A DNA stretch of 64,000 nt. Origin: Schmidtea polychroa (lineage: Eukaryota). A program made the translations under genes and the position numbers. This document shows, piece by piece, positions 37,422 through 58,549 of this stretch; position 1 is the stretch's first letter; each line of letters starts with the position of its first letter. Location: assembly GCA_044892525.1 (NCBI GenBank), contig CM097888.1:71362001-71426000 (forward strand), given 5' to 3'. The notes beneath the pieces are model-generated. The model was not told where the DNA came from. It made no database searches and saw only the letters and a list, made by a program, of their open reading frames with translations.

Positions 37422-37721
37422 TTAGAGTGAAATTTCCATTGACTAGTGTAAACTGGATAAGGATGTTATTGAGTGAATTTCTGTCGAATAGAGTGAACTC
37501 ACCGGGGATCAGTGATTTCAATGGGTTAGCGAGTGCAAATTGACTAATGCTTATCGAATCTTATTATAAATCACGAATAGAAAATAATAAAATTAAAAAT
37601 ATAAATAAAGCAAATTTAATGATAGAGAAATAAGATAAAAGTAAAATAATGATAACGAGTTAGAAAAGAGAATGTTTGACGAAACGAAGTCATATATTAC
37701 TGAAACATTTTTTTTATAGAC

Positions 37722-38207
37722 ATGACGGAATTCGTAGACCAGATACAACAACTAATCAACTTCATAAACATCGAGAATGACTCCCTTAAAACGCTGACAC
37801 AAAAAAGAGAAAGAATTAACATCATACTACTTCAAGCAATCGGGCAAACACCAGTCGTCCCCAACCACATGTTATTAGCCACAGGACTAAGTCACCCAGA
37901 TGGGAAGGTAAACCCGGAAACCGTGTATCAATGGTATCAAGAGAGATTGAACCACCCAGCATTAAATCTTGATTATCAACGTATAAAAGATCCACTAAAT
38001 ACCATATCAGATACAATCGAGCGGAAAATACAAGAAAAACTGACTCTACTACGAACTTGTCGTGCTTGTAAACTTCGTCCTATTCGCGTACTGTTTTTGC
38101 CGTGTGGACACCTCAGTCACTGCGAAGAATGTGTGAACGATTTAAAACGATGTACGATATGTAGGCATGAAATAAAAGAAACTCATATGGTTTATTATGG
38201 TGAATAA
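37722..38207 (+). CDS. 161-aa protein with a C-terminal IAP/RNF34-type C3HC4 RING, no BIR
   Basis: CRACKLRPIRVLFLPCGHLSHCEECVNDLKRCTICRHEIKETHMVYY; acceptor TTTTTTTTATAG|acATG; AATAAA overlapping the stop. Confidence 0.85.
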   Translation: MTEFVDQIQQLINFINIENDSLKTLTQKRERINIILLQAIGQTPVVPNHMLLATGLSHPDGKVNPETVYQWYQERLNHPALNLDYQRIKDPLNTISDTIERKIQEKLTLLRTCRACKLRPIRVLFLPCGHLSHCEECVNDLKRCTICRHEIKETHMVYYGE

Positions 38208-38771
38208 AACTGTTACAGCTACAATGACATCTATGAACATCAAATTGATACTGACAATTGAATGAGAATGAATGTAATTGTTGTGTGAAATTTTATTAAA
38301 GTTTTAAATTTTATTTCTATGACGAATAAATTTTTGTTGTGAACTGAGTAATTTATGGCTTTTAATTTTATTTTATAACTTTGTTTTGGAATCAAACGAA
38401 AAGAAAACCGAAATAACGTGGAATTAGTCCCAATATAGGCTGTAAGGGTACAAACCGAGCCACCTTAGGGCGGTACGTTCTATCATACGATAAAACCGAT
38501 TGGGAGGAGATAACCGATCAACCTAAGTGAGGAGCGTAGGGCGGGGTACCATCGCAAATGATGAGAAGTTTCTGCGGCATGACTGATCACCATGCCAATG
38601 TAGAAATGGATCATCGCGATCGTCGTGCGTTTTGAGCAAGGGGGGAAAGGGGACACACTCCCGAGCGGTAAAGATTAAGTCAACAAATTAAAAATAGACA
38701 GAGAAAATGGTAATCTTGAGTAAAAGAAGAAAAGAGAGGTAGAAGCATGCAGAGTAAAGAATGTTAAAGCT

Positions 38772-39170
38772 GAGCTGTTGAATAGTGCCAGCCAGTCGTA
38801 AGATCGAGTTGTTGAATAGTCCAACCGATCAGAAGGAGGAAGATTGAGCTGTTGAATAGTGCCAGCCAGTCGTAAGATCGAGTTGTTGAATAGTCCAACC
38901 GATCAGAAGGAGGAAGATTGAGCTGTTGAATAGTGCCAGCCAGTCGTAAGATCGAGTTGTTGAATAGTCCAACCGATCAGAAGGAGGAAGATTGAGCTGT
39001 TGAATAGTGCCAGCCAGTCGTAAGATCGAGTTGTCGAATAGTCCAACCGATCAGAAGGAGGAAGATTGAGCTGTTGAATAGTGCCAGCCAGTCGTAAGAT
39101 CGAGTTGTCGAATAGTCCAACCGATCAGAAGGAGGAAGATTGAGCTGTTGAATAGTGCCAGCCAGTCGTA
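38772..39170 (+). repeat. 74-bp tandem repeat, 5.4 copies, in the element's leader
   Basis: Units start at 38772, 38846, 38920, 38994, 39068 and 39142 (partial); each unit has two related GAG(C/T)TGTTGAATAGT-led halves. Confidence 0.97.
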
Positions 39171-40535
39171 AAGGCCTAGAAAAGCGAGAGATAGCAGTTA
39201 AGCTACAATGAGCTAATATCTGAATTAATAGAGAAAGGGAATATTAAAGCTAGCTAGAAACAAATTGAATGTAATTACGGAAATTTGAGTTTAGAGAGGA
39301 AATAAACGAGCTCGTAGAAAAGATAATAAGATTATAATGAAAAAGGAAAGGGAAGAAGGAAACGAATTAAAGAGATAATGGAAAATAAAGAATAGGCGAA
39401 ACGATGATAATGAGTAAAGAGGAAAGTAACCAACTAATTAAAGGGATCCCAGTGAGGTAGAGAAACTCTACGGAATATTTTTTTTGGTTAAACCGGGAAA
39501 ATGCATTTTATTGGTTCCAGAGTAGAACCGAGCGTAATAATAGTAAATATGAAAAGTAAAATAGCGACAACAGCGCAAAAGGAATAGGAAAACGAAGGGG
39601 GGTAATAAGCAGAGACCGACAACGACCTATTTTTACTATAATTGATAACGAATAGATAATTATTACGACTTGATAGATAATTGTTACTACCCCATATAGA
39701 TAATTTAAAATCGACGAAAAATTCGGGCTGATGGGAGATTATAACCCGCGGAAGTAATTGCATAAAAAATAGGGGAAGCATAAACAGAACCTAAAAGGTG
39801 TCTGTGTTCGAACGTTGTTGAAAGAATGATGAAGTCGTGTAAGCAAATGCAACACGAGATCATTTTTTCATTTTAGATATCAAACCAATCCAGTCAACCA
39901 AGACAATCCAGAACCTGCACAAAAGGAATTCGAAGAAATCGACAATCGACCAAGAATAAATTCATTCAGAACCCGCACCGAGAGACACAACAACCGGAAG
40001 ACTCCAGAACGGAAGAAGATACAGATAGCGACATCTCCAACTTCGAACGAATCATCGATATATTCAACCTCATAATATTAGCAGCCATCTGTCAAGGACT
40101 AGTGAATCTCCTCAGAATCACAGTAGCAGATTCATACAGAATATTTATCGAAGGAAACACAATCAGAACCGAACTCGTCCAATTCAATAGCCGCTAATTA
40201 CCAAGAAGCGTAAGAAAGGAATCACGGATAAACCCAATCTTAGATCTTCAAGTAAGCCAGGAGACGTATTATTTTCAGGAGACGAATTACAACAACTCAA
40301 AAGAGGACGATCTATTAAACAGCAAAGAGGAATATCACAAGGATCAAGAAGAACCAATCAAGTACCTATATTTGATCAAGAAAATCTCGGATACACCCCT
40401 AGTCGATCTCGAAGCAGAGAAAGTCTGTCCGACATCACTAATAGTTTAGCAACGTCAACCGAGGAATTATCAGCCCAAAGTTTAGTCACATCGTTAGACA
40501 ATTTAAAAGAAACAGACGAATCTAGAACACCAATC

Positions 40536-41441
40536 ATGACGAATATCGTAAAAACCGACGAGTATAAAGAGAAGTTCAGAGGAGAACCGTTCAACGGAAA
40601 TGCAAACAAGTTAGCAACGTTCATAACTAATTTTGAAGTTTATATCACTGTATGTGGATGGACACCCGAAGCAATTAGTAAAAGGATGCCGTTGTTTTTG
40701 TGCGATAGCGCATTAGAAGTATATTTAGAAGCTAAAGAGAGAGATACGAAATTAGAAAAGTGGGAAGATATCAAAACATTCCTGAAGAAAACCTTCGGAG
40801 CCAGTAAGCCAATCAACCAGGCGTTGGGCGAACTAGCAAATAGGAAACAAAGAGCAAACGAATCGATAACATTATATGCCAGTGAATTGCGGAGATTAGC
40901 GAAGAAAGCAATGAATGGAAAATTACCCGAAGAAAATCTGATCGGTTATTTCATAGAGGGATTACGCCGAGAAGAAGTAAGGGCCTCAGTAGGTTGTCAA
41001 ATGTGCAAAACATTAGAGGAAGCCATAGATTGGGCTACAAGATGCGAGCTCCACCTTCCAGCTCAAATGAATATTATGCAAGAGGAGGGAAGGATAATGA
41101 CAGCAATAGCGAAAGCGGATAACGGAGATAACAACAATCAAGAACCGAAAATGAATCAATTTATACCAGGAGCGCACCAAATTTTCAAACCACCACAAGG
41201 ACGATCAAATGGGAATAATGGTAATCGTAACAACCCGAATAATGAGAACAATTTTAATAATCGACGAAATATGAACGATAACAAGCAGTGTCGAACATGC
41301 GGTAAACCAGGACACTGGGACAGAGATTGCTATAGAAATTCAAATTGTAATCGTTGCGGACGGCGTGGACATACCGAAAATGTATGCCAATTGAGAGGTT
41401 GTTTTAACTGTGGTCAGCCAGGTCACATCTCCAGAGATTGC
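40536..41441 (+). other. Polyprotein domain: Gag capsid plus three CCHC zinc knuckles (41289-41441)
   Basis: EPFNGNANKLATF..F..Y capsid start; CRTCGKPGHWDRDC, CNRCGRRGHTENVC, CFNCGQPGHISRDC. Confidence 0.9.
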
Positions 41442-44400
41442 CGAGAAAGGGGCCAACAACAACGAGCACCACAGCGAAATAATAATTATATGGCGAATCC
41501 GCAACGACAAAGTAACCCTAGCGAAGGAAAACAAATGAACGTTATGCAGGAAATCTCGCAGATGAAACAGATGATGCAACAAATGATGAGACCAAGACAA
41601 GAACCAGCACCACAACAAACCCAGAACATACGTATGATGAGGAGTACCGAAAATCTCAACAATTATGAAGTGCATCAACATGTACAAGAATGGCAAAGAC
41701 TACAGGCCGAGGAAGAGAGGATAAAACAAGAACGCAACCAACAACGACAAGAACAACCATTGCGAATTAATATGATGAAGTTAGTAAAAGACATGAAAAG
41801 CCAGTATTGCTACAATTACGGGAAAAACCCAAGGGTAGTACCCATGACTGAACCAGAAAAGGTAACAGAAACAACAACGGAAATGAAAACAGAGAATTCA
41901 ACCACGATTTTAAAAGGAAACCAGAGAATTCAGAAAATATTCTGGAAAAAGATAAAAGATAAAATCGAAAAAGAACATAATAAAGCGAAAGCCGAGACAG
42001 AAGATGAAAATAACAAGAGCAAGGAACAAACCAGTCAACTAAACCACCAAATGCTACAAGAATTAGAATCAGAAGAAACAACGATATTCGAAAGAAAGAA
42101 ACTAAAGAGAGTACCAAGGATGAGAAACTTGCAAATCAATATGATGAAAAGGACAAAAGATGTAGCATCGTCAGACGAAGAAGAAGACTATGTAAGTAGT
42201 TTGGGTGGAGAAATACTACAGCTGAATGAAATAAGCGAACCTCCAAAAGGGGAAATCAAAGAGGAAGAAGGCGAAAGCGAGATAACCAGCGAAAGTGAAG
42301 ACGAGGATATCGAAATGAAGTTGAGAAAAGGGAAGGAGGAAGCGATAAAACAAGTAGCGGAAATACTCCCAGTAGTAGTGAGGAACCAAGAGTTCATTGA
42401 CGTAATACCATTCAGGCGATTCGTGCAAAAAGTGATGAAATTGGAAAGAAACGAGAAAGATTTAATACCAAACGAGGAAAAATCAATTATAAAAAAGTAT
42501 ATGGAAAAAATGAAGCAGGCAGATACCACGCGGTATGTCATAAAAATCGGAACGAGCAGAGGACTTGAAAGAATGTGGATAAAAAATACAGTCACCGACG
42601 AACTTTTCGATTGGATACGAGAACATTTGGGAAGTTCGAGAAAGAAAGAATATCTGTATCAATACCAAGGAGAACAGATCAAACCAGATATGCACTTAGT
42701 AGATGCACTAATATGGCCAGGAGAAACGCAAATACTGAAGTTGCATAAAGAAAAACAACCAGCCAACCTGTACGATTGGGCTAAAGATGCCAAGGCAGAA
42801 TATGATTTTAACATCAAATTGAAATTAGAACAAATAAAACAATGTACTCTGAGACGAAACCTGGATAAGCTGATCAAACAAATTCAAGCACAAGTGGAAG
42901 ACAACTGGGATTTACTCATCACCAGACGAGCCCCAGCCATGTACGAACTAATGAGCCGATTGCGAGATACAGAAATGCTCCGGATGAGTGATTGGAGAAC
43001 CATAAATTTAATCCACAAATATGGAAGGTTAAAAGAAACCCAGCCACAGAGGTTGGAAATAACCATATGGTTACCGAACGAAGAAAAACGACGAATAAAA
43101 ATGAGCAATCAGAGTACAGTAGATGACTTGGTATCAAAAATAAACCAAGAGATAACGGAAAAGGTACGTAGCGAAAGTAGTGATGGTATGGTGGATGATG
43201 TAGTCATGATGTACGATAAAATAATATTACGAGCGGAGGACGACACCTCGTTAAGCGAAATGGGTATGTGGGACAATCATCAGATAATCAGGATAGTACC
43301 AATGGATGAATTTCGAACAAGAGATGTAACCTATCAAAAAGAAATACGAGACCGGATGAAAACGTTATATCAAAAATCTACGGAAATAATTAAAATCCAC
43401 CAACAATGGTTAAAAGAAAAGGAACTACAAGGAAAAATCACGAAACTAAGTACCAGATCCTGCAGACGAACCCCATGGGAAAGAGTGTGGAATGCAGAAA
43501 CTAAGGAATGGGAAATCCGGAAAGGAATCTTCGTAGAAACAGACATTGGTGAGACAGAAAGTGAATCGGAGGAAGAAGAAGAGGAACCTCCAGAATATGA
43601 AGAAGAAGTAAGGGAACAGACATCGGATGACGAAAGCGAGACAGATGTCACATCAGAAAGCGAAAATGAAGCGAGACATATTCATGCAATGAGGAAAAAG
43701 GAACGAGAATATGCTGATATGGACGGCGAGGAAGCAATAGAAGCAAGAGAACGAGAAGAGAAAGAAAGATATAAACAATTAGGCGATATCTTAGCAATGG
43801 GAGCGAAAAATCAAAAACGCCAAGTAGTAGCGTTGGCTAACATCATCTTAAAAACATCAGAAAACATCCACAATCTGAGAGGAATGGCAAAGGCAATAGA
43901 GGAATACCGGCAATATAATGAATGGTATCCAGAACAGCTAGAACAAATTATTCGAAAATGGAGAAATCAGGAATGGGCACAAGACACTCAGGAGAGGTAT
44001 CACATCCGAATCAAGTATCCGGACAAGAGCATCGAGGAACTAGAGGTGCATCCAACAACAAAGATTAGAGAATTAAAAAAGAAGTTAGCATATGAAACTC
44101 CATTCCATCTGCAACTGTTCGGAAAATCACTAGACGATAATGCAGACGTCGGAATAACACCCATGAGATTGGAAGAGACAAATGTATTAACAATGGCAGA
44201 AACGTTGGGGAAACCGTTAAAAAGGAAAAGTAAAATTACTAAACTAACAAAAGGCAGTTTGAGTACTCCAAGTCCGAACAAAGCACCAAGTAAATCTAAT
44301 GAAACTGAAGAAGTTGAAGAGATAATCCTGGAAGATAGTGACGATGAACCAGGAGAAAGATCACCGCTATTAGTGAGATGGCCGACAGGAGCCGAAATGT

Positions 44401-47400
44401 GGACTAATAACCAGCCATCAACGAGTTATCAACAACCAACGAAACTGAACATCAAAGAAATCATCGACAATACTACGGAAACCGAAACGGATGAACAATT
44501 CCAGAAGCAAAGAGAACCAACGAAAGTAACACCAGAAGGTCAAACCGATAAAATAATAGATGAATGGAATGAGTGGCTAAAAAATAACGATAGCTCATTA
44601 CCCAGAACGGATAACGAAAGAAATCCGAATTACGAAAATACCAGAGAAGCCGGAACGATGATGGAAAAACGGGCAAAAGGAAGACCTAAGAAACAAGGAG
44701 AAAAGTCTGAGTTTAAAACCAAAGAACAATTAAAGCAAGAACAAGGGCAAGTTCGATTAGAGAAATTGGATAAAATAGTATGGGATCTAAAGGAAGCCCA
44801 ACCAACGATCGAAAGAGGAGAAAAATGGATACGAGAATTGTTAAAAGATATGTTAATAATAACAAACCCACAACTTAGACGCTTGTGGCAACGGAAAGTA
44901 GCCAGTACGGAAGCTAGACAATTATGGCACATCGTTTCGGGGATAATCCCAAAGTTAATCAAAGAGAAAACGAAAACCACCAAAACGGATTGGGATGAAA
45001 CAAAGAGAGTGATTGAACAGCTCACGACGAATGCAAATGATGACGAACATCACCTAGTGGTAATCACGTATTTGATGTATAATTTGATGGGACTAGCTGC
45101 GAGGAAAATACCAAATAAACAATTTGCAAATCATGTGGAAATGACCGTTTCAATCATAGAGAATACTATTGAACCACATATTATCCGTGCCGGAGGATGG
45201 AAAAGACTTATACAAGCGCCACGAAAAAATGAGCAAGAAAGGTCGATGCAAGTTAGATTGAAGAAGTTGTTGAATGAACTAGAATGGGAACTACCCATGA
45301 AAGACCCAGCAAGCCGAAAAGCATCGATAAATTCGTTAATGATGACTATGATGATATGGATGTTGTGCACAAGTGGAGCAACAGGTTTTACCATCTACGA
45401 TTGTGATAATATGATAATGAGAGATAAATACTCGTTGAGAGACATAGAAGAATGCAGACAAGCATCACCCAACAAATTAGACATAGTAAGAACAAAAGTT
45501 ACTTACCATGTATATCAAGAATCAGATTTCATCAGAACGCAAGCAAGGGAATGCGTGGTATCAAAAAAGGTACTCGCATATTACTGTGGACAATATTCGT
45601 ATTCGACTCTTATACTACCTGGTCTGGATAAAGAAATCGTATCAATACAACGAGAGGACTGTAAAGAGCTATTTAGAACCGGAGCGCTAAAAATGCATAA
45701 CGGAGTGACGATTCACGGACAAACTGGAATGATTAAAACCGAAAGCGTTTACGTATCCGGAAAAGTAAAATCATCAGATGGGTCATGTAACGGAGGTACG
45801 TATACGATCCGAGGCGAGGTAATATCGGGAGTAGTAGTGATCGAGTCTTACACGGTCGAATTAAAAGAATACGAAGCGCAATTTGACGCAAATAATTACC
45901 AAATGAAGACCAACCCAGCGTGTAGAGCTACAGAAAACGTATGTAGGACAGGAGTATCAACTATAATCTATGAAGCTAATACCCAAATATGCCGACTCCA
46001 ACTGTTAAAAAGTGCTTTGTTCAATGAAGTAAAAGGAGAAATATATGAGAACGAGAACGACGAGGATGGAAACGACAGAGTGAGAATGCGAAATGGAAAA
46101 CCAATGCCACCATCTCCCAGAGAAAAGAGACTTTCAACGCAGAAGACACCAACAGCATTAATCACAGACGATCCAGATCTAGGTATGAGATTTATCAAAG
46201 AGAAAGAAACCACCAAATGTGACAGTATAGTATATAAAACCAATTACGCAGGCATCTATATGTCGAGACAAATAATCGATAGAGCAGTGGGAAAGATAGC
46301 AACGGAGGACGTAAAACTATACTTATATGCAAATAATAAAATGGATTTTCTATTTCATCGCGGACAAACGACCTTGCAAAAAGTATATTACGATCTGATA
46401 CAAAACGATTGTTCATTGAATAAAGAAATATTGAAAACAAAGCTAGCTATTGCGATAACGCACCCAGATAACACGATGCCATCACTCCCATTACCAGATG
46501 GACACTTTGGTAGAATGGTAGGAGAAGTGATGTACACATACCAGTGTACCAAGACGTATGCACGAATGCCAGAAAAATCCATACTACCCGAAAAGAGATG
46601 TGCAAATGAATTAGAAATCCGTTATAAAGGACAAAATCGATTCGTCCAACCAGTCACTAGAATTATGAATCCAGTGGGTTTCTACCCAAATCTCTTTAAC
46701 TGTTCTAATGCATACGGACCTTTATATGAAAGGCCCGATGGGAAATGGATGATGTTACCGGGAAAAACCATATCCGAGGAGCCCAAGAAATTTGGATTAA
46801 TAGAACTCGCCACAGAGCTGGATTTCAAACCTATAGACGTGTCAAACGGTGGTATGTATTCCCCAGAAGATCTAGAAACAGCACGACTTAACGTACTCTT
46901 CCCAGCCAGACGAGAATCCATTTTGTCAAATATGGTTACAATAACGGGGGGAACAAATTATCAATCAGGCCCGAATTACGAGCTGCTACTATCGCCAGAC
47001 CATTTTCAACAAGCCACATCAAACATGATGAAAGCCATGTGGGGAAGATTCTTAGTTTTTGGACAAATGATGGCCGGGATATTAGGGATCATACTCATAA
47101 TTCAGATAGTCAGAGTAATACTAACACAAATGTTAGCGTGTTTTGATATATACAAGCGAGAAAAGAAAGTAAATTGGAAAATGATAGTAGGCTTTCTACC
47201 ATTTTTAGCTAAAACCATGGTATTACATGGTCACTCAAAAGACATTCATCGGATAAAGCGATTGATTAAAATATTAACAAAGATTAAAGGAACCGACGAG
47301 GAAGTAGGCAGACGATTCCGGAAAGTAATGTACGATGAAGCAACAAGACGACAATTGAAAAAGAATAAGCCAAAATTCTTGGACCGATTTAGAAGCCAAT

Positions 47401-50400
47401 CATCTAACAGCGATAGTGACGACGATGATAACGGGAACGATAAATGTCTATATCCAAACAGAAACCCAAACGAAAAACCAATGGAAACGGCACCATATTG
47501 GGAGAAGGAAAAGACAAATACCTGGATCGCCAATGGAAGCTACATACCACCGGATATCGCGGGACCACAAGCAGCTTTGACCATGACACAAAATATGTAT
47601 CCGCAATTACCAAGTCAACCCGGTATGCATTATATGCCAACACGACGTACCAAAAGTGTAGATCAAGCAGATGACGTAAGAACAATAGCAGCGATGAGTT
47701 TACCTGGAGGTCCAGCAGTAACAGTTATGATTCAAATCAATGGTAAAGAAACCAATGCTATGATAGACACAGGAGCTAATGTATCAGCGATAGCGATTAA
47801 TCAAATTCCCAGTAAACACTGGAAAGATATCGAATCCACAACAATTCACATCATAGCATGTAGTAAAGAAACAGTGGACGTGGTCGGAAGATGGTGGACT
47901 ACATTGAGATACCAGGACAACGAAATTGAAACGTATTTGGCAGTAATACCAAAACTTAGCGTACCATGCATAATCGGAACGGATTTGATGCCAGAATTGT
48001 TAAAAGAAGTCGTAATTGACTTAACAACCATGTGTTTAAAAGACAAAACCGGTAGAATATGCAAAATGAATGTAGTCATCAGATGTCCAGAAAAAATAAT
48101 AGTACCAGCAAAATCGCAGATGATTTGTCAGATAAAAGTGGATACGGGTATGGAAGGAGAAGTTATCTTTGAACCAAGCAAGTCATTTGAAAAGCGACGA
48201 GAATTACCACTCGCAAGAGAAATAATCACAATAAACCAAGAAGGAGTGATACCGCTCAACATCACGAATTTCGAAGAGGAAGACAAAATCATTTATGAGA
48301 ACGAAAAATTAGGAAAATTGACCCCAATGATGGACATAGAATTACCGAAAGTGACCAACGAGATGATCAAAGATGATGAATTATGGACAATAGATAGTAT
48401 GTTGTTGACGAATGATGAAAAGAAAAAATTGCACCGATTGTTGGTAGAATATAAAGATATATTCGCCATCTCAGATTTAGACTTGGGTACATGTGATGTT
48501 ACCTTACATGCAATACCACTCATAGACGAAACCCCAATTGCATTGAGACCATACAAGTTAGCAGAAATGCAGAAAGAAATAGCCGAAACAGAAGTACAAA
48601 AGATGCTAGACGCAAAAGTAATCGAACCAAGTTGCTCACCCTGGCAATTCCCAGTGGTCATGGTAAAAAAGAAAGATGGCACCCAACGATTCTGTATCGA
48701 TTATCGGAAGTTAAACGCAGTAACCAAGAGAGATACCTATCCATTGCCGGACATCAATGAGATGTTATTGATGTTGCAAGGGGCAGCATATTTTACTTCT
48801 TTAGATCTAAAAAGTGGATACTGGCAGATTAAAGTCAAAGATGAGGACAAAGAGAAAACAGCTTTCACGTTGGGACGAGATCTATATCAATTCAGGAAAA
48901 TGCCATTTGGACTGACCAACGCACCAGCATCATTTCAACGGTGTATGAACTTTGTCACCCATGGAATCAAACAATGTATGGTATATATTGATGATTTACT
49001 AATCTATTCAGCGACATTTGAACAACATCTGGAAGATATCCGAAACGTATTTATTAGATTAAGACAGTGGAAACTCAAACTCAAACCATCAAAATGCGAT
49101 TGGGCAAAGGAAAAAGTCACGTTTTTAGGACACATAGTGTCAGCTAAAGGAAAGGAGCCAGATCCAAGAAACATTGAGAAAATAAAAACATGTCCAGCAC
49201 CGAAAACTGTCACCCAAGTTCAGGAATTTCTAGGATTATGCGGATACTATCGCAAATTTATCAAAAATTATGCAGGAATTGCAAAACCAATCCAGGAATT
49301 AGTAAAGAAGGACATTTCGTTCATTTGGGGGAAGGAACAACAAGAGGCGTTCGAAACGCTGAGAGATAAACTAATCGAAGCACCTATCCTCGTACACCCA
49401 GATTTTAAGAAGCCATTTCTATTGGCAACGGATGCAAGCGGGTACGCGGCAGGCGCGATTCTGGGACAATTAGATGATGAAGGAAAAGAGAGAGTAATCG
49501 GGTATTACAGTCGAACATTCAAAAAGCACGAAAAGAACTATTCGGTAACAGAACGGGAAGCATTGGCTATAATACAAGCTATCAAACACTTCCGATACTT
49601 ACTATGGGGACATGAGATATGTATAACCACAGATCATCAACCATTAGTGTGGTTAGGGCAACATAAAGAAGCGTCCAGTAGACTGATGAGATGGGCCATG
49701 CAATTGCAAGAATACTCCCCATTTATAAAATTCAAAGCGGGAAGAGCAAATGCCAACGCCGATTGTATGTCAAGATTTATTTTCCCAGATTTGGTGGATT
49801 CAGAAATGCAACGCATATGCTTAATAGTAGCGGAAGATTTGGATTTCTGTCAACTGCGAAAGGACCAACAAGAGGACGCGGAATTAAAACAAATTATCGA
49901 TTATGTAAAAACCGGAAAGACAGATGTATATGCGAAAGACCAAAAATTAAAAGAACATATGGATAAACACCGACACCGATATATTATAGAGAAAGATTGG
50001 TTGCTGATAATGGATGGGGAAAAACGATTAATGTGTATACCGGAAAACCGACGAAAAGAGTTACTAACGCAATATCACGATGGGAGATTGGGAGGACATA
50101 TGTCATCGAAAAAGACGTTAGCAAGAATGAAACAGAAATATTTTTGGCCTACGTTAACTGAAGATGTAACCGAATGGGTAAAAAATTGTCTAACTTGTGC
50201 AACCAGGAAGAATACTGGATCGAAATGGAAAGCACCTTTAACGCCAATGCCAGTACCAATAGAACCAATGACAATGATATCCATGGACGTAGTTGGTCCA
50301 CTACCAGAGTCAGATAAAGGAAACGTTTACATTCTAGTGATCACAGACTTTCTTACGAAATTCCCAGAAGCATTCGCGATGCCAGACCAAAAAGCTAAAA

Positions 50401-53400
50401 CAATCGCAAAAATTTTGGTAGAAGAGATATGTTGCCGATATGGAACACCAAAACAAATCTTAACCGATCAGGGAACTAATTTTATGAGTGAGATAATGAG
50501 CGAAGTAACAAATTACTTCAAAATAGCAAAACTAAGAACATCTCCATACCACCCTCAAACCAATGGGATGACGGAAAGATTTAATGGAACACTTATACAA
50601 ATGTTATCAAACTACGTCGACCGTCACCAACGAGATTGGGACGAATATATAAACCTATGTCTTATGGCATACAGAATGTCGATTCACGCATCAACGAAAA
50701 TGAGCCCATTCAAATTAATGTACGGAAGAGAGTGTAATATGCCAATGGACCTGGAATACCAACCACCGATATCGCAGTATATGGAGATCGATGATTATGT
50801 TACGAAATTCAAGGAAAGAATGCAAGAGATTTGGGAAACTGCGGGATTAAATATCAAGTTCTACCAGGAAAGTTATAAAGATTTACACGATCGAAAGAAA
50901 AACGTGAAGCAACATACGTTTCAAACAGGTGATTGGGTAATGATAGAAACCCCGGAATTAATTCCAGGAACCACAAAAAAGTTACAACGCAACGGAAAAG
51001 GACCATATGAGATCTTATTCGTAGGCGAAACTAATGTAAGAGTGAAATTGGTAAATAACCCCTTTACCAGGCCAATATACGTAAACGTGGCACGATGCAA
51101 ATCAATTCCAAAAACAGCCACTAGTCAACCAGAAGGCCGTACATTAACCACACGTTCGCAAACCTACAGAATGAACATGATGCAACAACTCGCAGAACCG
51201 ATCACTGGACGATTAGGTATCCAACCATCAGAAGCGGAAAAGATTGTAAAAGAGGTAAAAATTAAAATACCTGGATGGGCAAAAGATCGATTAGATTTCG
51301 AAATATTAGGAGGATTATTGACGATGATCGAGAACTATGCAAATAGAGAAAGGACACACCCATTATTGCGAGTAGTCAAAAGCCAATGGCCAATATTATT
51401 TACCATAACAGATCATTACGGAGACACACCATTACACAAACTCATGAAAGTAGGTAACAACGAGCAAATACTAGAAACAATAGAAGCATTTCACGACTGC
51501 AAGCGATCAACAGAACAAACAAACAACCAAGGTTACACACCATTAATGATAGCCGCAAACAGAGGCAAAACAAAAGACGTTATAACCGCATTACTCGATA
51601 CTGGATCGAAAATAACTACACAAGACCACGAGCGGAAAAACGCTCTATATCATGCTATCGAAGGGAGAAGTACCGAGGCGTTCACGTCATTGATGGAACT
51701 ACTATCATATGAGGACAATCGAGAAGTCGGAAACATGTATGATGGATTATTAACAGCGATCAAAGAGAAACTGACAACAATTACCGGAATATTAATTACA
51801 TGGAGAAATCCAATTCAAAACGATTATATGATCAACGTAAACGAAGCGTTCACGAGAGGAGAGAACACGCTGATGAGAGAAGCTATGAAAGGACATCATT
51901 TATTCGAAATCCCGAATCAATTACTAGAACGAGGGATAAAATTCACAAATCACAAAGATGAACAGTTAACAAAAAAGCGAATCGACACATTCGAAAAATC
52001 ACTATTCCAATTTACTAACCAAGTACGAAATAAATATTGGGAAACGGTAAGTGTGTTATATATGATGGACACAATGAATAACATCCGCGAGAATTACCTG
52101 GATATTATCCAAATACTTACAGCAGAGGAACGAATCAATAATCCAAACGGAAAGAAAACGAAAATAAGGTATGAGAAATCCAGGGAATCAAAGTCAACAA
52201 CGAACCAAACGGTCACAAACAACGTCATCGAAACCAAATCAATGAGTATAGATCAAGAGGCAATAATACGCAAAGCAAAAGAAGTGTTCTTTGAGGAAAT
52301 GCTAGAGCTGCCAGACGAAATAATATTGTCCAAAATAATAAAAGCCGTACACACATACGCAAGAGATCAAACCACGGGTTTAGATATCGGGAAAATCAAA
52401 ACCTTCTTGCCTCGAGCATTTACGATGGTAACAAAGGATTCCAGAACACCTCTACAACAAGCAATACTAGCTGCAAAAGAGAATAGAGCAATAACGATCA
52501 TGAGCATCCTTGGGGAGATGGGCGAGGAAACCAACACGAAAAATGAACAAGGTGAAACCGCCATGATGTATGCAGCTATAACGAAAATACACCCAAAAAC
52601 ACTCCACATCCTACATCAATCAGGATCGAAACTAGACGAAAGGTCCAATGAAGGAAATTCCACCTTGGACTGGGCAACCATACAGCCAAACTTAGAAATG
52701 ATCAGATTTATTTGCAAAAATGCGACAAAGGAAGAAGTTGAAAACATGTGCAAAGACACATCTCAGTTTCAATGGAATACGATACGGAAAAATCTAGAAG
52801 CAATGAAATTATTATTAACCTGGAGAGTACCACAAAATAATAAATATGCGATAAATGTAAACGAATTCTACGAAAACGGAGAAAATGCGATGGTAAAGAA
52901 CACCCTAACTAAGGGGGGGACGCCTAAAATTATTTTAATAGTATTAAATAGAGAAGACCTAAAATTCACGCAAAATCAGAACGAGCAACAACGAATTGGG
53001 AAACATCGTCGCATGCAATTGAGAGAGTTAGTTAAAGAATGGAATAGAAAGAGACATGCTGCAACGGGTAGAAAAGAGTTTGAATTCGAAGCAAAATTAG
53101 CAAGAAACAGAGTGCTAACAGCATATCGCAGATTATTGAACGATATAAATGTCGAGGACGACATTTTAAACGACAGCGGGGGAGATAAAAACGATGACAA
53201 TGACGGAAAAGGCCGAAAGGAGGATAAAGGGAAAAGAGAACCGGAAGAGGATAAACCGGAAAACAAGGATTTGGATACGAAAAGAGAGGGAAACAGGCCG
53301 GGAACCAAGACCAAAGAGGAGGAAAAATCGAATAATGGAAAACAGAGGGTATGCCTACCTTTCACTAACAAAGAAATAGAGACAAATATGATATTAATGA

Positions 53401-54389
53401 TAATTATGCTTACCATGATAGAGTTAGTAACAGCTCAGGGAGGGACGAGAACGATAAAAGAAACCAAAGAAGCGGAGAATCAAGATAGCAAAGAGGATGA
53501 ACTAAAGCAAGAAAAGAAAAAGCAAGCACAAGAGCAGCAGTGGGATTTAAAGGAAGAATGGGACTTAAAGGAAAGGTGCATACTAGGAAGATGCATGTCT
53601 AGAGCGTATCAGAAACTAGTACTGATAAATGAGGACACAGAACCAATAACAGAAGTAAGAATACAAGAAGCATACCGAAATCGAGACGGGAAGAGAATAA
53701 CGAACGTTAAAGGAAAAGAGGTACACCTAGGAAAAGGTGGTGAAGTAGTAATAACGCAGCTCCAACCTAGAAGAGAGCACAAAGTCTGTATTTCAAGATT
53801 AGGACCAGGTGAGAGATGCCATCAATATGTGACGCAGCAGCAGCCGCCGAAAGAATACACGGTTTGTATCTGGAGGAATGAATCAAAAAGAGAATGCCGA
53901 CGATACCCAGGGAAAAGAGGAAAGAAAAGAAAAAACCACGACGAAAAGAACGAAGGAGGAAAGCACAAGAAAACCGGCGAGGAAGCTCAGGACAACTATG
54001 TTTCGGAGGAAGAGATGGAAAAAATACAAAAGATGGCAAAGGAGGGTATGAACGAGGAAATAGCAAGAATACGGGAAATGATGAAAGGAAATGGCAAAAG
54101 AGGAAACGAGAAAGGTATAGAAGCGATATCAACATTAACGAACAAGGAGAAACCAGAGAATATAAGCGTGAAGCAGATGATGTGGATCAGTGGGATAATA
54201 ATAACAGGGGCCTTCCTAATCATAACGGGGGGAACAATAAAAATAATCAAAGATAAACGACATCGCGGAGAACTAGAGATGACCCGAATCAGAAATTTCC
54301 AACATCGAGTGAAACGACCAAGTGATATCAAACAAGAACAGTGGGTGGAGGCCTGGAACGCTCAGCGCCCTCCAAACTCACGTATATAG
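40536..54389 (+). CDS. gag-pol: Single 4617-aa Gag-Env-Pol-accessory polyprotein (frame open from 40191)
   Basis: No stop or frameshift over 13.85 kb; contains CCHC knuckles, DTG protease, YIDD RT, RNase H and HHCC/DDE integrase. Confidence 0.97.
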   Translation: MTNIVKTDEYKEKFRGEPFNGNANKLATFITNFEVYITVCGWTPEAISKRMPLFLCDSALEVYLEAKERDTKLEKWEDIKTFLKKTFGASKPINQALGELANRKQRANESITLYASELRRLAKKAMNGKLPEENLIGYFIEGLRREEVRASVGCQMCKTLEEAIDWATRCELHLPAQMNIMQEEGRIMTAIAKADNGDNNNQEPKMNQFIPGAHQIFKPPQGRSNGNNGNRNNPNNENNFNNRRNMNDNKQCRTCGKPGHWDRDCYRNSNCNRCGRRGHTENVCQLRGCFNCGQPGHISRDCRERGQQQRAPQRNNNYMANPQRQSNPSEGKQMNVMQEISQMKQMMQQMMRPRQEPAPQQTQNIRMMRSTENLNNYEVHQHVQEWQRLQAEEERIKQERNQQRQEQPLRINMMKLVKDMKSQYCYNYGKNPRVVPMTEPEKVTETTTEMKTENSTTILKGNQRIQKIFWKKIKDKIEKEHNKAKAETEDENNKSKEQTSQLNHQMLQELESEETTIFERKKLKRVPRMRNLQINMMKRTKDVASSDEEEDYVSSLGGEILQLNEISEPPKGEIKEEEGESEITSESEDEDIEMKLRKGKEEAIKQVAEILPVVVRNQEFIDVIPFRRFVQKVMKLERNEKDLIPNEEKSIIKKYMEKMKQADTTRYVIKIGTSRGLERMWIKNTVTDELFDWIREHLGSSRKKEYLYQYQGEQIKPDMHLVDALIWPGETQILKLHKEKQPANLYDWAKDAKAEYDFNIKLKLEQIKQCTLRRNLDKLIKQIQAQVEDNWDLLITRRAPAMYELMSRLRDTEMLRMSDWRTINLIHKYGRLKETQPQRLEITIWLPNEEKRRIKMSNQSTVDDLVSKINQEITEKVRSESSDGMVDDVVMMYDKIILRAEDDTSLSEMGMWDNHQIIRIVPMDEFRTRDVTYQKEIRDRMKTLYQKSTEIIKIHQQWLKEKELQGKITKLSTRSCRRTPWERVWNAETKEWEIRKGIFVETDIGETESESEEEEEEPPEYEEEVREQTSDDESETDVTSESENEARHIHAMRKKEREYADMDGEEAIEAREREEKERYKQLGDILAMGAKNQKRQVVALANIILKTSENIHNLRGMAKAIEEYRQYNEWYPEQLEQIIRKWRNQEWAQDTQERYHIRIKYPDKSIEELEVHPTTKIRELKKKLAYETPFHLQLFGKSLDDNADVGITPMRLEETNVLTMAETLGKPLKRKSKITKLTKGSLSTPSPNKAPSKSNETEEVEEIILEDSDDEPGERSPLLVRWPTGAEMWTNNQPSTSYQQPTKLNIKEIIDNTTETETDEQFQKQREPTKVTPEGQTDKIIDEWNEWLKNNDSSLPRTDNERNPNYENTREAGTMMEKRAKGRPKKQGEKSEFKTKEQLKQEQGQVRLEKLDKIVWDLKEAQPTIERGEKWIRELLKDMLIITNPQLRRLWQRKVASTEARQLWHIVSGIIPKLIKEKTKTTKTDWDETKRVIEQLTTNANDDEHHLVVITYLMYNLMGLAARKIPNKQFANHVEMTVSIIENTIEPHIIRAGGWKRLIQAPRKNEQERSMQVRLKKLLNELEWELPMKDPASRKASINSLMMTMMIWMLCTSGATGFTIYDCDNMIMRDKYSLRDIEECRQASPNKLDIVRTKVTYHVYQESDFIRTQARECVVSKKVLAYYCGQYSYSTLILPGLDKEIVSIQREDCKELFRTGALKMHNGVTIHGQTGMIKTESVYVSGKVKSSDGSCNGGTYTIRGEVISGVVVIESYTVELKEYEAQFDANNYQMKTNPACRATENVCRTGVSTIIYEANTQICRLQLLKSALFNEVKGEIYENENDEDGNDRVRMRNGKPMPPSPREKRLSTQKTPTALITDDPDLGMRFIKEKETTKCDSIVYKTNYAGIYMSRQIIDRAVGKIATEDVKLYLYANNKMDFLFHRGQTTLQKVYYDLIQNDCSLNKEILKTKLAIAITHPDNTMPSLPLPDGHFGRMVGEVMYTYQCTKTYARMPEKSILPEKRCANELEIRYKGQNRFVQPVTRIMNPVGFYPNLFNCSNAYGPLYERPDGKWMMLPGKTISEEPKKFGLIELATELDFKPIDVSNGGMYSPEDLETARLNVLFPARRESILSNMVTITGGTNYQSGPNYELLLSPDHFQQATSNMMKAMWGRFLVFGQMMAGILGIILIIQIVRVILTQMLACFDIYKREKKVNWKMIVGFLPFLAKTMVLHGHSKDIHRIKRLIKILTKIKGTDEEVGRRFRKVMYDEATRRQLKKNKPKFLDRFRSQSSNSDSDDDDNGNDKCLYPNRNPNEKPMETAPYWEKEKTNTWIANGSYIPPDIAGPQAALTMTQNMYPQLPSQPGMHYMPTRRTKSVDQADDVRTIAAMSLPGGPAVTVMIQINGKETNAMIDTGANVSAIAINQIPSKHWKDIESTTIHIIACSKETVDVVGRWWTTLRYQDNEIETYLAVIPKLSVPCIIGTDLMPELLKEVVIDLTTMCLKDKTGRICKMNVVIRCPEKIIVPAKSQMICQIKVDTGMEGEVIFEPSKSFEKRRELPLAREIITINQEGVIPLNITNFEEEDKIIYENEKLGKLTPMMDIELPKVTNEMIKDDELWTIDSMLLTNDEKKKLHRLLVEYKDIFAISDLDLGTCDVTLHAIPLIDETPIALRPYKLAEMQKEIAETEVQKMLDAKVIEPSCSPWQFPVVMVKKKDGTQRFCIDYRKLNAVTKRDTYPLPDINEMLLMLQGAAYFTSLDLKSGYWQIKVKDEDKEKTAFTLGRDLYQFRKMPFGLTNAPASFQRCMNFVTHGIKQCMVYIDDLLIYSATFEQHLEDIRNVFIRLRQWKLKLKPSKCDWAKEKVTFLGHIVSAKGKEPDPRNIEKIKTCPAPKTVTQVQEFLGLCGYYRKFIKNYAGIAKPIQELVKKDISFIWGKEQQEAFETLRDKLIEAPILVHPDFKKPFLLATDASGYAAGAILGQLDDEGKERVIGYYSRTFKKHEKNYSVTEREALAIIQAIKHFRYLLWGHEICITTDHQPLVWLGQHKEASSRLMRWAMQLQEYSPFIKFKAGRANANADCMSRFIFPDLVDSEMQRICLIVAEDLDFCQLRKDQQEDAELKQIIDYVKTGKTDVYAKDQKLKEHMDKHRHRYIIEKDWLLIMDGEKRLMCIPENRRKELLTQYHDGRLGGHMSSKKTLARMKQKYFWPTLTEDVTEWVKNCLTCATRKNTGSKWKAPLTPMPVPIEPMTMISMDVVGPLPESDKGNVYILVITDFLTKFPEAFAMPDQKAKTIAKILVEEICCRYGTPKQILTDQGTNFMSEIMSEVTNYFKIAKLRTSPYHPQTNGMTERFNGTLIQMLSNYVDRHQRDWDEYINLCLMAYRMSIHASTKMSPFKLMYGRECNMPMDLEYQPPISQYMEIDDYVTKFKERMQEIWETAGLNIKFYQESYKDLHDRKKNVKQHTFQTGDWVMIETPELIPGTTKKLQRNGKGPYEILFVGETNVRVKLVNNPFTRPIYVNVARCKSIPKTATSQPEGRTLTTRSQTYRMNMMQQLAEPITGRLGIQPSEAEKIVKEVKIKIPGWAKDRLDFEILGGLLTMIENYANRERTHPLLRVVKSQWPILFTITDHYGDTPLHKLMKVGNNEQILETIEAFHDCKRSTEQTNNQGYTPLMIAANRGKTKDVITALLDTGSKITTQDHERKNALYHAIEGRSTEAFTSLMELLSYEDNREVGNMYDGLLTAIKEKLTTITGILITWRNPIQNDYMINVNEAFTRGENTLMREAMKGHHLFEIPNQLLERGIKFTNHKDEQLTKKRIDTFEKSLFQFTNQVRNKYWETVSVLYMMDTMNNIRENYLDIIQILTAEERINNPNGKKTKIRYEKSRESKSTTNQTVTNNVIETKSMSIDQEAIIRKAKEVFFEEMLELPDEIILSKIIKAVHTYARDQTTGLDIGKIKTFLPRAFTMVTKDSRTPLQQAILAAKENRAITIMSILGEMGEETNTKNEQGETAMMYAAITKIHPKTLHILHQSGSKLDERSNEGNSTLDWATIQPNLEMIRFICKNATKEEVENMCKDTSQFQWNTIRKNLEAMKLLLTWRVPQNNKYAINVNEFYENGENAMVKNTLTKGGTPKIILIVLNREDLKFTQNQNEQQRIGKHRRMQLRELVKEWNRKRHAATGRKEFEFEAKLARNRVLTAYRRLLNDINVEDDILNDSGGDKNDDNDGKGRKEDKGKREPEEDKPENKDLDTKREGNRPGTKTKEEEKSNNGKQRVCLPFTNKEIETNMILMIIMLTMIELVTAQGGTRTIKETKEAENQDSKEDELKQEKKKQAQEQQWDLKEEWDLKERCILGRCMSRAYQKLVLINEDTEPITEVRIQEAYRNRDGKRITNVKGKEVHLGKGGEVVITQLQPRREHKVCISRLGPGERCHQYVTQQQPPKEYTVCIWRNESKRECRRYPGKRGKKRKNHDEKNEGGKHKKTGEEAQDNYVSEEEMEKIQKMAKEGMNEEIARIREMMKGNGKRGNEKGIEAISTLTNKEKPENISVKQMMWISGIIITGAFLIITGGTIKIIKDKRHRGELEMTRIRNFQHRVKRPSDIKQEQWVEAWNAQRPPNSRI
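42534..44194 (+). other. Polyprotein domains: three ubiquitin-like domains (~42534-42745, ~43053-43299, ~43998-44194)
   Basis: Patterns parallel ubiquitin's beta-grasp, e.g. IRIKYPDKSIEELEVHPTTKIRELKKKL...LQLFGKSLDD and ITIWLPNEEKRRIKMSNQSTVDDLVSKI...DTSLSEMGM. Confidence 0.65.
44757..45215 (+). other. Polyprotein domain: Bcl-2-like helical bundle
   Basis: IENTIEPHIIRAGGWKRLIQ aligns to Bcl-xL BH2 (LNDHLEPWIQENGGWDTFVE); a degenerate BH1 sits at the expected upstream spacing. Confidence 0.6.
45327..47135 (+). other. Polyprotein domain: envelope glycoprotein (signal peptide, Cys-rich ectodomain, REKR furin site at 46119-46130, TM), chuvirus-like
   Basis: Signal INSLMMTMMIWMLCTSGATG|FTIYDC; motifs YDC..YSLRDIEEC, YCGQYSY, DGSCNGG, C.L.KEILKTKLAIA, GEVMY..QC, GMYS.EDL..LFP; TM at 47049-47135. 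Confidence 0.8.
47718..47990 (+). other. Polyprotein domain: aspartic protease
   Basis: AMIDTGANVSAI (Asp codon at 47766) and IIGTDLM. Confidence 0.92.
48540..49785 (+). other. Polyprotein domains: reverse transcriptase and RNase H
   Basis: SPW.FPVVMVKKKDG..RFCIDYRKLN, LDLKSGYWQI, MPFGLTNAPASFQ, YIDD (48984); TDASG, E.EALA, TDH, NANADCMSR. Confidence 0.97.
50070..51110 (+). other. Polyprotein domain: integrase with GPY/F motif
   Basis: H..RLGGH...CLTC; MDVVGP, TDQG, TERFN (D,D35E); GKGPYEI. Confidence 0.95.
51411..52920 (+). other. Polyprotein domains: two duplicated ankyrin-repeat modules after integrase
   Basis: GDTPLH, GYTPLMIAA, KNALYHAI; RTPLQQAI, GETAMMYAA, GNSTLDWA; both modules end in TWR..N.Y.INVNE....GEN. 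Confidence 0.85.
53388..54249 (+). other. Polyprotein C-terminal module: second signal peptide, FN3-like ectodomain, TM helix
   Basis: MILMIIMLTMIELVTAQ (53388-53438); VVITQLQPRREHKVCIS resembles the FN3 L.P.T.Y motif; TM MMWISGIIITGAFLIITGGTIKII (54177-54249). Confidence 0.55.
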
Positions 54390-54549
54390 AAAGGAATATG
54401 ACTGTATATAATTGTAAAAAGTAAGTATATCTTATGTATATAACAGTACTATATCTTTATATAAGCGCGGTATCAATATTATACAATAACGGGAATCATA
54501 AAATAAAATTAAAGTTAAATAAGAGTTGAAAAGTGTATATAAATTAAGA

Positions 54550-54909
54550 ATGGATCAAGGAAATAACGAAATGAACCACAATACAGTAACTGAAGAATTA
54601 TGGAAGCAACAATGTGCCGTATTAGCACAATTAGTGTCCAATTTGCAAGAACAAGGATTGACGATGCACAGAAACCTAATCGAGAGTATGAATAGAGGAT
54701 TTAGTTATTTGAAGATAATTGAAGACCAGAGGTTGAAAATCGAACAAATGCAAAGAGAGATAGAGAGGATAACCCAATATAGCCGTAGACAGGAAATTGA
54801 ACTAAACAGAATGATGGAGGAAGCAGAACAGACAGAAATAGAAGACTGGTCGGAATGGTTAATGAATAGAGAGGAGAGCGGACACGAAGCCGACTCTTCC
54901 GAACCCTAA
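54550..54909 (+). CDS. 119-aa coiled-coil/acidic accessory protein
   Basis: First ATG at 54550 (the track starts at TTG 54526); helical E/Q/R-rich sequence; AATAAA at 54942. Confidence 0.65.
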   Translation: MDQGNNEMNHNTVTEELWKQQCAVLAQLVSNLQEQGLTMHRNLIESMNRGFSYLKIIEDQRLKIEQMQREIERITQYSRRQEIELNRMMEEAEQTEIEDWSEWLMNREESGHEADSSEP

Positions 54910-54994
54910 ACCAAACCTAGCTTAAAATGTAAATAATTGTAAATAAAATATCGAACCTGTATCGATAAGAACTATTTGTACATATAATTATAGA

Positions 54995-56383
54995 ATGGAT
55001 AAACGACAAAGAGAAGAGTTCAGAGAGATTGTCGAGCAAGTCCGAAAATCTACAACGATCAGAATACACAAACATGTTATGTGCGGAATATGTGAAAAGT
55101 TGTTAAAGGAACCTCACCAAACGCAATGTGGATGCAGAGTATGTAAAGAATGTATCAGTGAAGCAATAAAGAATAGACCACAGAGGTGCCCGGTGTGTAA
55201 AGAGACACTAATATCGAGTTTAGAAGACACTAACGAGGATAAAGCCGCAGTGAAAGACATGTTAAACACCAACCTGGGATGCAAAAATGCCCCATGCGAA
55301 TGGAAAGGAGTAATATGGAAGGTAGTACAACATATGGGAGAATGTATGTACAGAATTGGCCAGTGTGAAAGGTGCCATAAAACCATTCGAGCAAGCGAAG
55401 AAAAAGAGCATCAAAGGCAGTGTGAGGAGAGATTAGAAAGATGTGAACACTGTGGAGAAATAGATACGTGGAAAAATCTCACCCTCAAACATCACAATGT
55501 CCAAGAGGAGAGAGTATGTGCAGAGTTCAGTGGGGAATGCCCAAACGGATGTAACCAAGGGGAAATAATGAAGGTGGCACAGCATCTAAGGGAATGTGAA
55601 AAGAAAAGAATGACATGCGTACTAGGCAAATGGGGTTGTCAGAAACTACTACACCGAGGGGAGTTACCACATCATTTAGTAGAAAATGCTTCAACCCACG
55701 CAGAAATGTGGTCGACTGCGTTACAAGAAAGCGAGGAGAAAGTAAAACAAATGGAGATAGAGATAGCATCGTTGAAAGTATTAGTCAAAGAACTACTAGA
55801 AGAAAGGGAAGCGTTCGAAGAAGCCCGAGCAAACATAAAGATGCAAATAAACCGAATAGAAATCAGTAATAATCAGGCCAAGGAGCTACATCAGAAAATA
55901 CGGGAAATAAATCTAAATGAGATAACCCCAACAGCACCCTACATATGGAAGATTACGGGAGTAAAGGAAAGAATACGAAAAGCAAAAACCGGAGAAGAGA
56001 CAAGAATAACAAGTCCTGCATTCCATTCTTGGAAAAATGGGTACAAAATGAAAATGAAGATATATCCCAACGGGGACGGAACCGGATTAGACACACACTT
56101 TTCGATTTTCTTTCTGTTATGTAAAGGAGAATACGACGAAATAATAGAGTGGCCGTTCCAGGCGAAAATCGATATTGCACTAATGAATGACCGAAACATC
56201 CACGAACAAAGCTTCAAGACAACTGGAAACCAAATGTGTTACCAGAGACCTACGGAAGAAGAAGGATCAGCAACAGGAGCACCTACGTTCATCCTACAAC
56301 AAAAAGTAGAAGATATGGCAAGAAAGGGCACGGTGTATATCAAGATGACCGTAAGGAAAGAGGAGAAGGGCAGAACGGAGTAA
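54995..56383 (+). CDS. Intronless full-length TRAF-family protein (RING, TRAF zinc fingers, coiled coil, MATH domain), 462 aa
   Basis: CGIC..LLKEP.QT.CGCRVC..C..CPVC; GC.W.G....H...C; YIWKI...SPAF..GYKM..KIYPNGDG.G..TH.S.FF.L.KGEYD..I.WPF. Confidence 0.93.
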   Translation: MDKRQREEFREIVEQVRKSTTIRIHKHVMCGICEKLLKEPHQTQCGCRVCKECISEAIKNRPQRCPVCKETLISSLEDTNEDKAAVKDMLNTNLGCKNAPCEWKGVIWKVVQHMGECMYRIGQCERCHKTIRASEEKEHQRQCEERLERCEHCGEIDTWKNLTLKHHNVQEERVCAEFSGECPNGCNQGEIMKVAQHLRECEKKRMTCVLGKWGCQKLLHRGELPHHLVENASTHAEMWSTALQESEEKVKQMEIEIASLKVLVKELLEEREAFEEARANIKMQINRIEISNNQAKELHQKIREINLNEITPTAPYIWKITGVKERIRKAKTGEETRITSPAFHSWKNGYKMKMKIYPNGDGTGLDTHFSIFFLLCKGEYDEIIEWPFQAKIDIALMNDRNIHEQSFKTTGNQMCYQRPTEEEGSATGAPTFILQQKVEDMARKGTVYIKMTVRKEEKGRTE

Positions 56384-58508: not shown

Positions 58509-58549
58509 ATTAAGGGTCACTAAAACCAATTGTAAATAAACCATAATGA

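Follow-up and report, generated by a model that had tools for sequence, protein, structure and literature searches.

A Burro-type giant retrotransposon of Schmidtea polychroa carries RING, ubiquitin-like, Bcl-2-fold, ankyrin and TRAF modules under purifying selection

We analyzed a 64,000-bp stretch of the genome of Schmidtea polychroa (assembly GCA_044892525.1, contig CM097888.1, positions 71,362,001 to 71,426,000 of the forward strand), in the following called the window. As shown in Table 1, the window contains one intact env-bearing gypsy element with long terminal repeats (LTRs), which spans positions 33250-63587 (30,338 bp). A first-pass annotation had placed an IAP-type RING, ubiquitin-like (Ubl), Bcl-2-like, ankyrin and TRAF modules in a single element, and all five indeed lie between the two 4.1-kb LTRs. 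The two LTRs measure 4147 and 4146 bp, agree at 99.976% of positions, begin with TG and end with CA, and a TACC target-site duplication flanks both ends of the element. The near-identity of the LTRs and the TACC flanks indicate that the insertion is recent. The open reading frames (ORFs) inside the element are all on the plus strand and comprise a RING ORF of 161 amino acids (aa), a 4617-aa polyprotein (ORF1) and five downstream ORFs. Pfam matches of the polyprotein cover gag, zinc knuckles, a Monjiviricetes-type fusion protein, protease (PR), reverse transcriptase (RT), RNase H (RH), integrase (IN) and ankyrins. The primer-binding-site-like sequence is presumably tRNA-Pro-like.

Table 1. Features of the retrotransposon, in window coordinates
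Feature	Position	Strand	Basis
5' LTR, TG...CA, with 249-aa ORF (36083-36832) after a splice-acceptor-like site	33250-37396	+	
Primer-binding-site-like sequence	37403-37425	+	sequence
161-aa RING ORF	37722-38207	+	Pfam, PDB matches
Leader tandem repeat, 74-bp unit, 5.4 copies	38771-39171	+	
4617-aa polyprotein: gag-CCHCx3-Ubl1-Ubl2-helical-Ubl3-Bcl2-env-PR-RT-RH-IN-Ank1-Ank2-membrane tail	40536-54389	+	
Ubiquitin-like domain 1, unconfirmed	42534-42755	+	low-confidence model
Ubiquitin-like domain 2	43041-43307	+	fold search
Ubiquitin-like domain 3	43989-44213	+	fold search
Bcl-2-fold domain	~44808-45227	+	fold and profile searches
Signal-peptide-like segment, then Env with membrane segment	45324-47120	+	PF24664
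Protease, RT, RNase H, integrase	47724-50795	+	Pfam
Two duplicated ankyrin modules	51393-52745	+	Pfam, hhalign
C-terminal tail, one signal-like and one membrane-like segment, no Pfam family	53376-54389	+	
119-aa accessory ORF, no family; sister-family counterpart 31%	54550-54909	+	
Intronless full-length TRAF, RING-Zn fingers-coiled coil-MATH	54995-56383	+	Pfam, homology
Three accessory ORFs: 351 aa and 253 aa (both coiled-coil-like), 219 aa (membrane segment)	56578-59209	+	
3' LTR, 4146 bp	59442-63587	+	

The element is a Burro-type giant gypsy retrotransposon, an architecture already described in planarians; Burro1/GYPSM1 and Burro-2 to -4 are said to have been described originally by Jurka in 2007 and Grohme in 2018. 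It is longer than 30 kb, has long LTRs and many copies, encodes gag, env, PR, RT, RH and IN in a single ORF in which an in-frame env follows Bcl-2, and carries Ubl, Bcl-2, ankyrin and MATH/TRAF cargo. It thus resembles Burro1/GYPSM1 and Burro-2 to -4 of Schmidtea mediterranea, which are >30 kb long and gypsy-like with a huge gag-env-pol ORF and for which MATH_TRAF, BIR, ankyrin, BCL2-like and Ubi/SUMO-like motifs and an in-frame env have been reported (PMC6431247). Further features in common with Burro1-4 are an env flanked by Bcl-2 and protease, three CCHC knuckles, and the Ubl/SUMO-like, ankyrin and TRAF/MATH domains (PMC6431247), the comparison with Burro-2, -3 and -4 being one of descriptions only. 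Unlike in Burro1, ORF1 has 4617 rather than 4873 aa and contains no MATH domain, there is no BIR, and the TRAF is a separate downstream ORF. The in-frame MATH and BIR-containing IAP that mark Burro1 are missing from the family loci L001-L030 and L061-L160 as well. A Burro-like element of Dugesia tigrina also has TRAF/MATH as an accessory ORF, but there it lies upstream of an ORF1 of 5140 aa, whereas in the window it follows ORF1 (PMC6431247). A dUTPase-like domain between PR and RT, for which the published Burro call used HHpred, gave no Pfam match at E 0.01 in our element. Our literature search, which did not extend to Grohme 2018 and Lee 2026, found neither selection values for individual modules nor a Burro family without BIR; these two papers may already present domain maps by family as well as data on splicing and selection. 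PMC11410931 mentions Burro.

The 161-aa ORF consists of a helical N-terminal part followed by a RING that matched Pfam zf-C3HC4_3 (E 8e-12) and, as best PDB hits, the RINGs of cIAP2, cIAP1, Livin and XIAP (E 1.6e-11), which makes it IAP-type. The name fits its C-terminal RING only, as the ORF has no BIR, and none was found in the rest of the window element or in the family loci L001-L030 and L061-L160. The zinc ligands are each kept in 43-44 of 44 copies. At the position of a valine in cIAP2 that we take to be an E2 contact, all 44 copies have Ala or Ser, and the protein may therefore be a weak ligase or a decoy. In the corresponding 160-aa RING of a sister family introduced below (L214:6516-6995), the residue after the last cysteine, which we assume to be the "linchpin" position, is Asp versus Arg/Lys in the window RING; the short RINGs thus depart from cIAP at different catalytic positions in each family.

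Three ubiquitin-like domains had been proposed, and for two of them the fold was confirmed: Ubl2 (VIA Z 9.7, root mean square deviation [rmsd] 2.5, 76 aligned residues) and Ubl3 (VIA Z 10.4, rmsd 1.4, 67 aligned residues), Foldseek agreeing in both cases; the Pfam ubiquitin match of Ubl3 (E 0.0039) was under the cut-off. In Ubl1, which is conserved in the sister family (41%), the order of strands and helices fits ubiquitin, but pLDDT was only 30-47 and the hhalign match was weak (0.5-20%), so that a ubiquitin fold is plausible from the model yet unconfirmed. The C-terminal GG, the diglycine of conjugatable modifiers, was found in none of Ubl1-3.

By sequence the Bcl-2 domain is weak (Pfam E 0.044; profile search against Bcl-xL E 0.016), and neither a single-sequence PDB search nor the protein atlas picked it up. 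Its assignment was upheld by structure prediction: when a model based on a Burro-only alignment (pLDDT 63) was searched against 48,161 chains, the top 36 rows were all of Bcl-2 fold (best Z 13.2, rmsd 2.9, 137 aligned residues) and the first row of another fold had Z 6.2, and Bcl-2 proteins made up all rows among the Foldseek matches listed (best E 9e-3). A BH2-like PxIxxxGGW is retained. The domain shares its fold with viral Bcl-2 mimics (BHRF1, A179L, poxviral N1/A52/M11L) at 5-17% identity; unlike these, it is located within a retroelement polyprotein, ahead of the Env signal segment. Env is a Monjiviricetes-type fusion protein (PF24664, E 1.1e-69), and the order Bcl-2, hydrophobic segment, env start is shared by the window family and two smaller families. 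Two helical domains of the polyprotein (aa 741-838 and 1076-1150) appear CARD/DED-like by eye; no match was found for them, and their models were poor.

The ankyrin modules and the TRAF also proved to be real. Pfam Ank_2 matched the two ankyrin modules with E 1.6e-15 and 1.2e-8, and hhalign (98%) identified them as mutual duplicates, which points to duplication within the element. The TRAF is complete (462 aa, Pfam RING and MATH), its nearest relatives are the MATH domains of TRAF1/2/3 (E 3.6e-27), and its RING cysteines are invariant in 50 of 50 copies. In a midpoint-rooted tree of 33 MATH domains with long branches, the four Burro sequences formed one clade (96/85) separate from 29 host loci; the TRAF was likely captured once and then duplicated.

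If the modules were neutral passengers of random capture, as might be imagined for domains as common as RING, Ubl and ankyrin, their reading frames should decay among the copies. For the dN/dS comparison proposed by the first-pass annotation, a search with the TRAF ORF was used, of which the best 92 of 1910 candidates were scored; 91 had no stop. Fifty of the 91 other loci were aligned to the window and two tandem twins were removed, leaving 48 copies plus the window. Omega (dN/dS) was calculated with a kappa of 3 from variants shared by at least two copies, such variants not being independent events. The values were 0.14 for the RING domain and 0.35 for the N-terminal part of the RING ORF, 0.12, 0.12 and 0.11 for Ubl1-3, 0.09 for Bcl-2, 0.18 and 0.13 for the ankyrin modules, and 0.13, 0.22 and 0.38 for RING/Zn fingers, MATH and coiled coil of the TRAF, the last not being significant (p 0.07). 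Core genes had lower values (env 0.02, RT 0.02, IN 0.01), and the controls gave 1.45-2.78 for shifted frames and 0.69-1.3 for the non-coding leader. Variants private to one copy were less constrained in most regions. Broken copies were no commoner for the cargo (RING 0/44, Ubl block 4/42, Bcl-2 3/43, ankyrins 3/48, TRAF 1/50) than for env (8/43) and pol (6/42), counts that are biased by the choice of copies with an intact TRAF match. These results show that the cargo modules are under purifying selection (omega 0.09-0.38). With omega far below 1 against calibrated controls, reading frames that persist between families at 28-52% identity, and a RING ORF unbroken in 44 of 44 copies of which some are only 80-82% identical in DNA, the passenger explanation is refuted and retains next to no credibility; the earlier statement that the cargo is not a random transduction was borne out.

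The copies among L061-L160 are mosaic: in copies whose polyprotein reaches 98% identity, the RING ORF drops to 80-82% at the DNA level, so that subfamilies seem to recombine often. Some copies follow each other on one strand at a distance of about 26.2 kb (G000 C4:69865757/69892041, C4:46256274/46282455 and C2:177699304/177725516); these seem to be tandem elements sharing an LTR or assembly duplicates.

The cargo set differs among related families of the same genome. A sister family, whose RT is 87-89% and whose cargo is 28-52% identical to the window family, shares the upstream 160-aa RING ORF (orthologous to the window RING, 28%), Ubl1-3, Bcl-2, env, ankyrin, an ORF like the 119-aa ORF, and TRAF. 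It additionally has an in-frame MATH domain in ORF1 (~4790 aa) and a 393-aa BIR-RING IAP directly after the TRAF, and is thereby closer to the description of Burro1 than the window family, in which 194 bp separate the TRAF from the next ORF and no BIR-IAP is found there. The BIR-IAP was either lost in the window family or gained in the sister family. Two small env-bearing gypsy families (L189-L196 and L263-L270) with many near-identical RT copies show a small Burro plan: their elements (~13.5-17 kb in those with both LTRs identified) encode gag, Bcl-2, env and pol in one frame, and Ubl, ankyrin, TRAF and RING were not detectable in them. Four loci of the listed smaller relatives were examined with a Bcl-2 profile and an RT tree; the profile matched three of the four (E 5e-9 to 3e-7), and in the other small family Bcl-2 was recognized by Pfam. 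A quick RT tree united all these families (SH-aLRT 96) and left their branching order unsettled. Since smaller relatives have Bcl-2 and env only, the cargo was gained stepwise, Bcl-2 separately from the rest. The modules are thus one inherited set common to the sister family and gained in at least two steps, and not the independent captures that had been proposed. Protein database searches returned four relatives only (P0001-P0004). A second class of mobile elements with Bcl-2-like cargo is present in the genome: multi-copy Polinton/Maverick-like elements (L197-L200, L230-L232 and L046-L060), have a Bcl-2-like gene of their own; they are so called from ORFs that by eye resemble those for integrase, ATPase and capsid.

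The first-pass annotation had let the modules converge on TNFR/NF-kB, apoptosis and ubiquitin signalling. In the NF-kB part of this reading they would jointly silence a TNFR/TLR-to-NF-kB immune pathway, with the ankyrins mimicking IkB and the RING taking the place of the cIAP that partners the element TRAF. A TRAF of TRAF1/2/3 type, a RING of cIAP type, and the adjacency of TRAF and BIR-IAP in the sister family are in agreement with this idea. However, cIAP binds TRAF2 through its BIR, which the window element lacks, and IkB is a contiguous stack of six to seven ankyrin repeats with a DSGxxS degron. The element has ankyrin repeats, but in two short modules ~230 aa apart that resemble generic ankyrins and DARPins, BCL3 ranking far down among the 60 rows listed, and DSGxxS occurs in no ORF of the element. 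The signal-like and membrane segments that follow the ankyrins argue against a free IkB mimic. The TRAF-binding motif PxQx[TSD] had a single match, within the ankyrin region, and a complex prediction for the TRAF trimer (coiled coil and MATH) with the RING protein, made with alignments unused, scored 0.00 and is informative neither way. On the host side, the induction of planarian TRAFs through TBK1 would favor the idea, whereas seven divergent RHD genes without a clear NF-kB are reported for a model planarian, and RNA interference (RNAi) against the closest Relish-like gene had no effect on a TBK1-linked read-out (PMC13563047). Searches of the host genome for RHD (0 candidates, compared with the seven genes reported in the related planarian) and TNFR_c6 (0 of 9 scored) had no working control. 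As the ankyrins are generic and both degron and BIR are missing, we give an NF-kB function little credence.

With slightly better than even confidence, we favor the reading that this intact, recently inserted Burro-type element keeps its host-derived modules by selection and that they likely keep the host cell alive during replication. Baculovirus IAPs and viral Bcl-2 proteins are precedents for host-derived survival genes on mobile or viral elements. The element protease would cut the polyprotein near aa 1049, where an I-x-[AM]-M motif occurs that is also present at aa 411, 534 and 2384, the last just upstream of the protease. Signal peptidase would free Env and leave a helical-Ubl3-Bcl-2 product held in the endoplasmic reticulum (ER) by the Env signal segment, a product that would resemble a tail-anchored Bcl-2. 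RING, TRAF and the other small ORFs would be made from spliced subgenomic RNAs, and the BIR-less RING with its Ala/Ser at the E2 contact would be a decoy or a partner in dimers, not an IAP that binds caspases. The element TRAF would likely join or compete with host TRAF complexes, which are needed for planarian cell survival, RNAi of host TRAFs increasing cell death (PMC7586133). NF-kB is unnecessary for this survival model. The anti-death interpretation was largely anticipated: the Burro cargo list has been published together with the suggestion that Burro interferes with apoptosis and ubiquitination in its host (PMC6431247), and the BIR-RING protein of Burro1 (B-IAP) has been reported to guard stem cells from caspase-mediated apoptosis (Lee et al. 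2026, Dev Cell, via PMC13465017). To this extent the host-survival idea of the earlier annotation stands, its NF-kB part excepted.

Several observations weigh against a survival role. Linkers (omega 0.10-0.26), the C-terminal tail (0.25), the 119-aa ORF (0.25) and the 351-aa ORF (0.19) are as constrained as the cargo, and the selection data therefore indicate function but not a pathway; the bias of the break counts is a further weakness. In the Bcl-2 domain the BH1 motif NWGR is lost and the aligned residues are non-conserved, and in the fold search the poxviral Bcl-2-fold proteins A52, B14 and A46, which to our knowledge are not known as BH3 binders, had the same fold. The window family has no BIR-IAP, the sole module reported to block apoptosis; B-IAP, from the same element group, has BIR plus RING, compared with only a BIR-less RING in the window. 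BURRO1 transcripts were shown after loss of SMEDWI-2, and in a related species the smedwi-2 phenotype was not relieved by BURRO1 RNAi (PMC8532177). A cell-survival role of the window-family cargo is likely but putative.

The loss of BH1 would also suit modules that serve the life cycle of the element itself, in polyprotein folding, trafficking or turnover, Env maturation at the ER and particle budding through the ubiquitin system, with survival signalling being incidental. Ubl, Bcl-2 and ankyrin share their reading frame with gag, env and IN and are located beside membrane segments, and Bcl-2 is tied to env in every examined relative scored for Bcl-2. On the other hand, the Ubls do not end in the GG required of a cleavable spacer, a role in assembly would hardly account for a full TRAF and a BIR-IAP, and near-identical copies of the smaller relatives without Ubl, ankyrin, TRAF and RING show that these modules are not required for replication. 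We regard a life-cycle function as possible but unlikely. Somewhat less probable still is that the cargo is kept mainly for the benefit of the host, the copies supplying stem cells with survival proteins as reported for Burro1 (Lee 2026 via PMC13465017). The full-length polyprotein frame is kept in at least 55 of 150 scored loci (Bcl-2 search, 150 scored of 866), which speaks for such a mutualism, but the reported protective gene, the BIR-RING IAP, is absent from the window family, selection acting while the element itself replicates would likewise give a low omega of shared variants, and in most regions the constraint on private variants is weaker.

Within the survival reading, one could speculate, with considerable doubt, that Burro elements are complex retrovirus-like agents which assembled a survival toolkit stepwise, first an env-linked and ER-anchored Bcl-2 mimic and then Ubl, ankyrin, TRAF and IAP, and that the window family uses the Bcl-2 route together with a RING decoy of weak ligase activity and may draw on the IAP of the sister family. 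If true, this would be a second transposon route to planarian stem-cell survival, independent of a caspase inhibitor. Three grades of one lineage are present in one genome, with Bcl-2 and env only, without BIR-IAP, and Burro1-like with BIR-IAP, and by comparing them one can test directly which module is the protective one.

The placement of AG ahead of accessory start codons makes it likely that the accessory ORFs are expressed from spliced subgenomic RNAs, as predicted from sequence. An AG is present 1-2 bases ahead of the ATG of the RING, 119-aa, TRAF and 351-aa ORFs (four of six internal accessory ATGs), that of RING, TRAF and 351-aa ORF being invariant among the aligned copies; the 253- and 219-aa ORFs have none ahead of their first ATG. 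In the sister family AG precedes five ORFs by 0-3 bases, and in the element a TAG pattern precedes 18 of 550 ATGs. Spliced-leader trans-splicing of the accessory ORFs is less favored, as the acceptor-to-ATG distances differ in frame; moreover, the flatworm spliced leader ends in AUG. Contigs of three runs guessed to be RNA, which may be DNA, cover 25, 30 and 3 of 30 bins with the LTR excluded.

Intronless multi-copy element TRAFs may lead to overestimates of the number of planarian TRAFs and make RNAi against TRAFs harder to interpret; >121 MATH transcripts have been counted (PMC7586133). Several host TRAF genes (L233-L238) are single open frames of 454-473 aa, intronless and ~26-31% identical to the element TRAF, and a large cluster of MATH genes is located on C2. 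No family above the cut-off was found for the 351-, 253- and 219-aa ORFs. Each LTR contains a 249-aa ORF (36083-36832 and 62274-63023) with a strong acceptor-like site ahead and no Pfam family; it has a weak homologue in the sister-family LTR and a 37% homologue at L196. On the coding strand A exceeds T between window positions 40000 and 59500, the skew reaching up to 0.44 and stopping at the LTRs.

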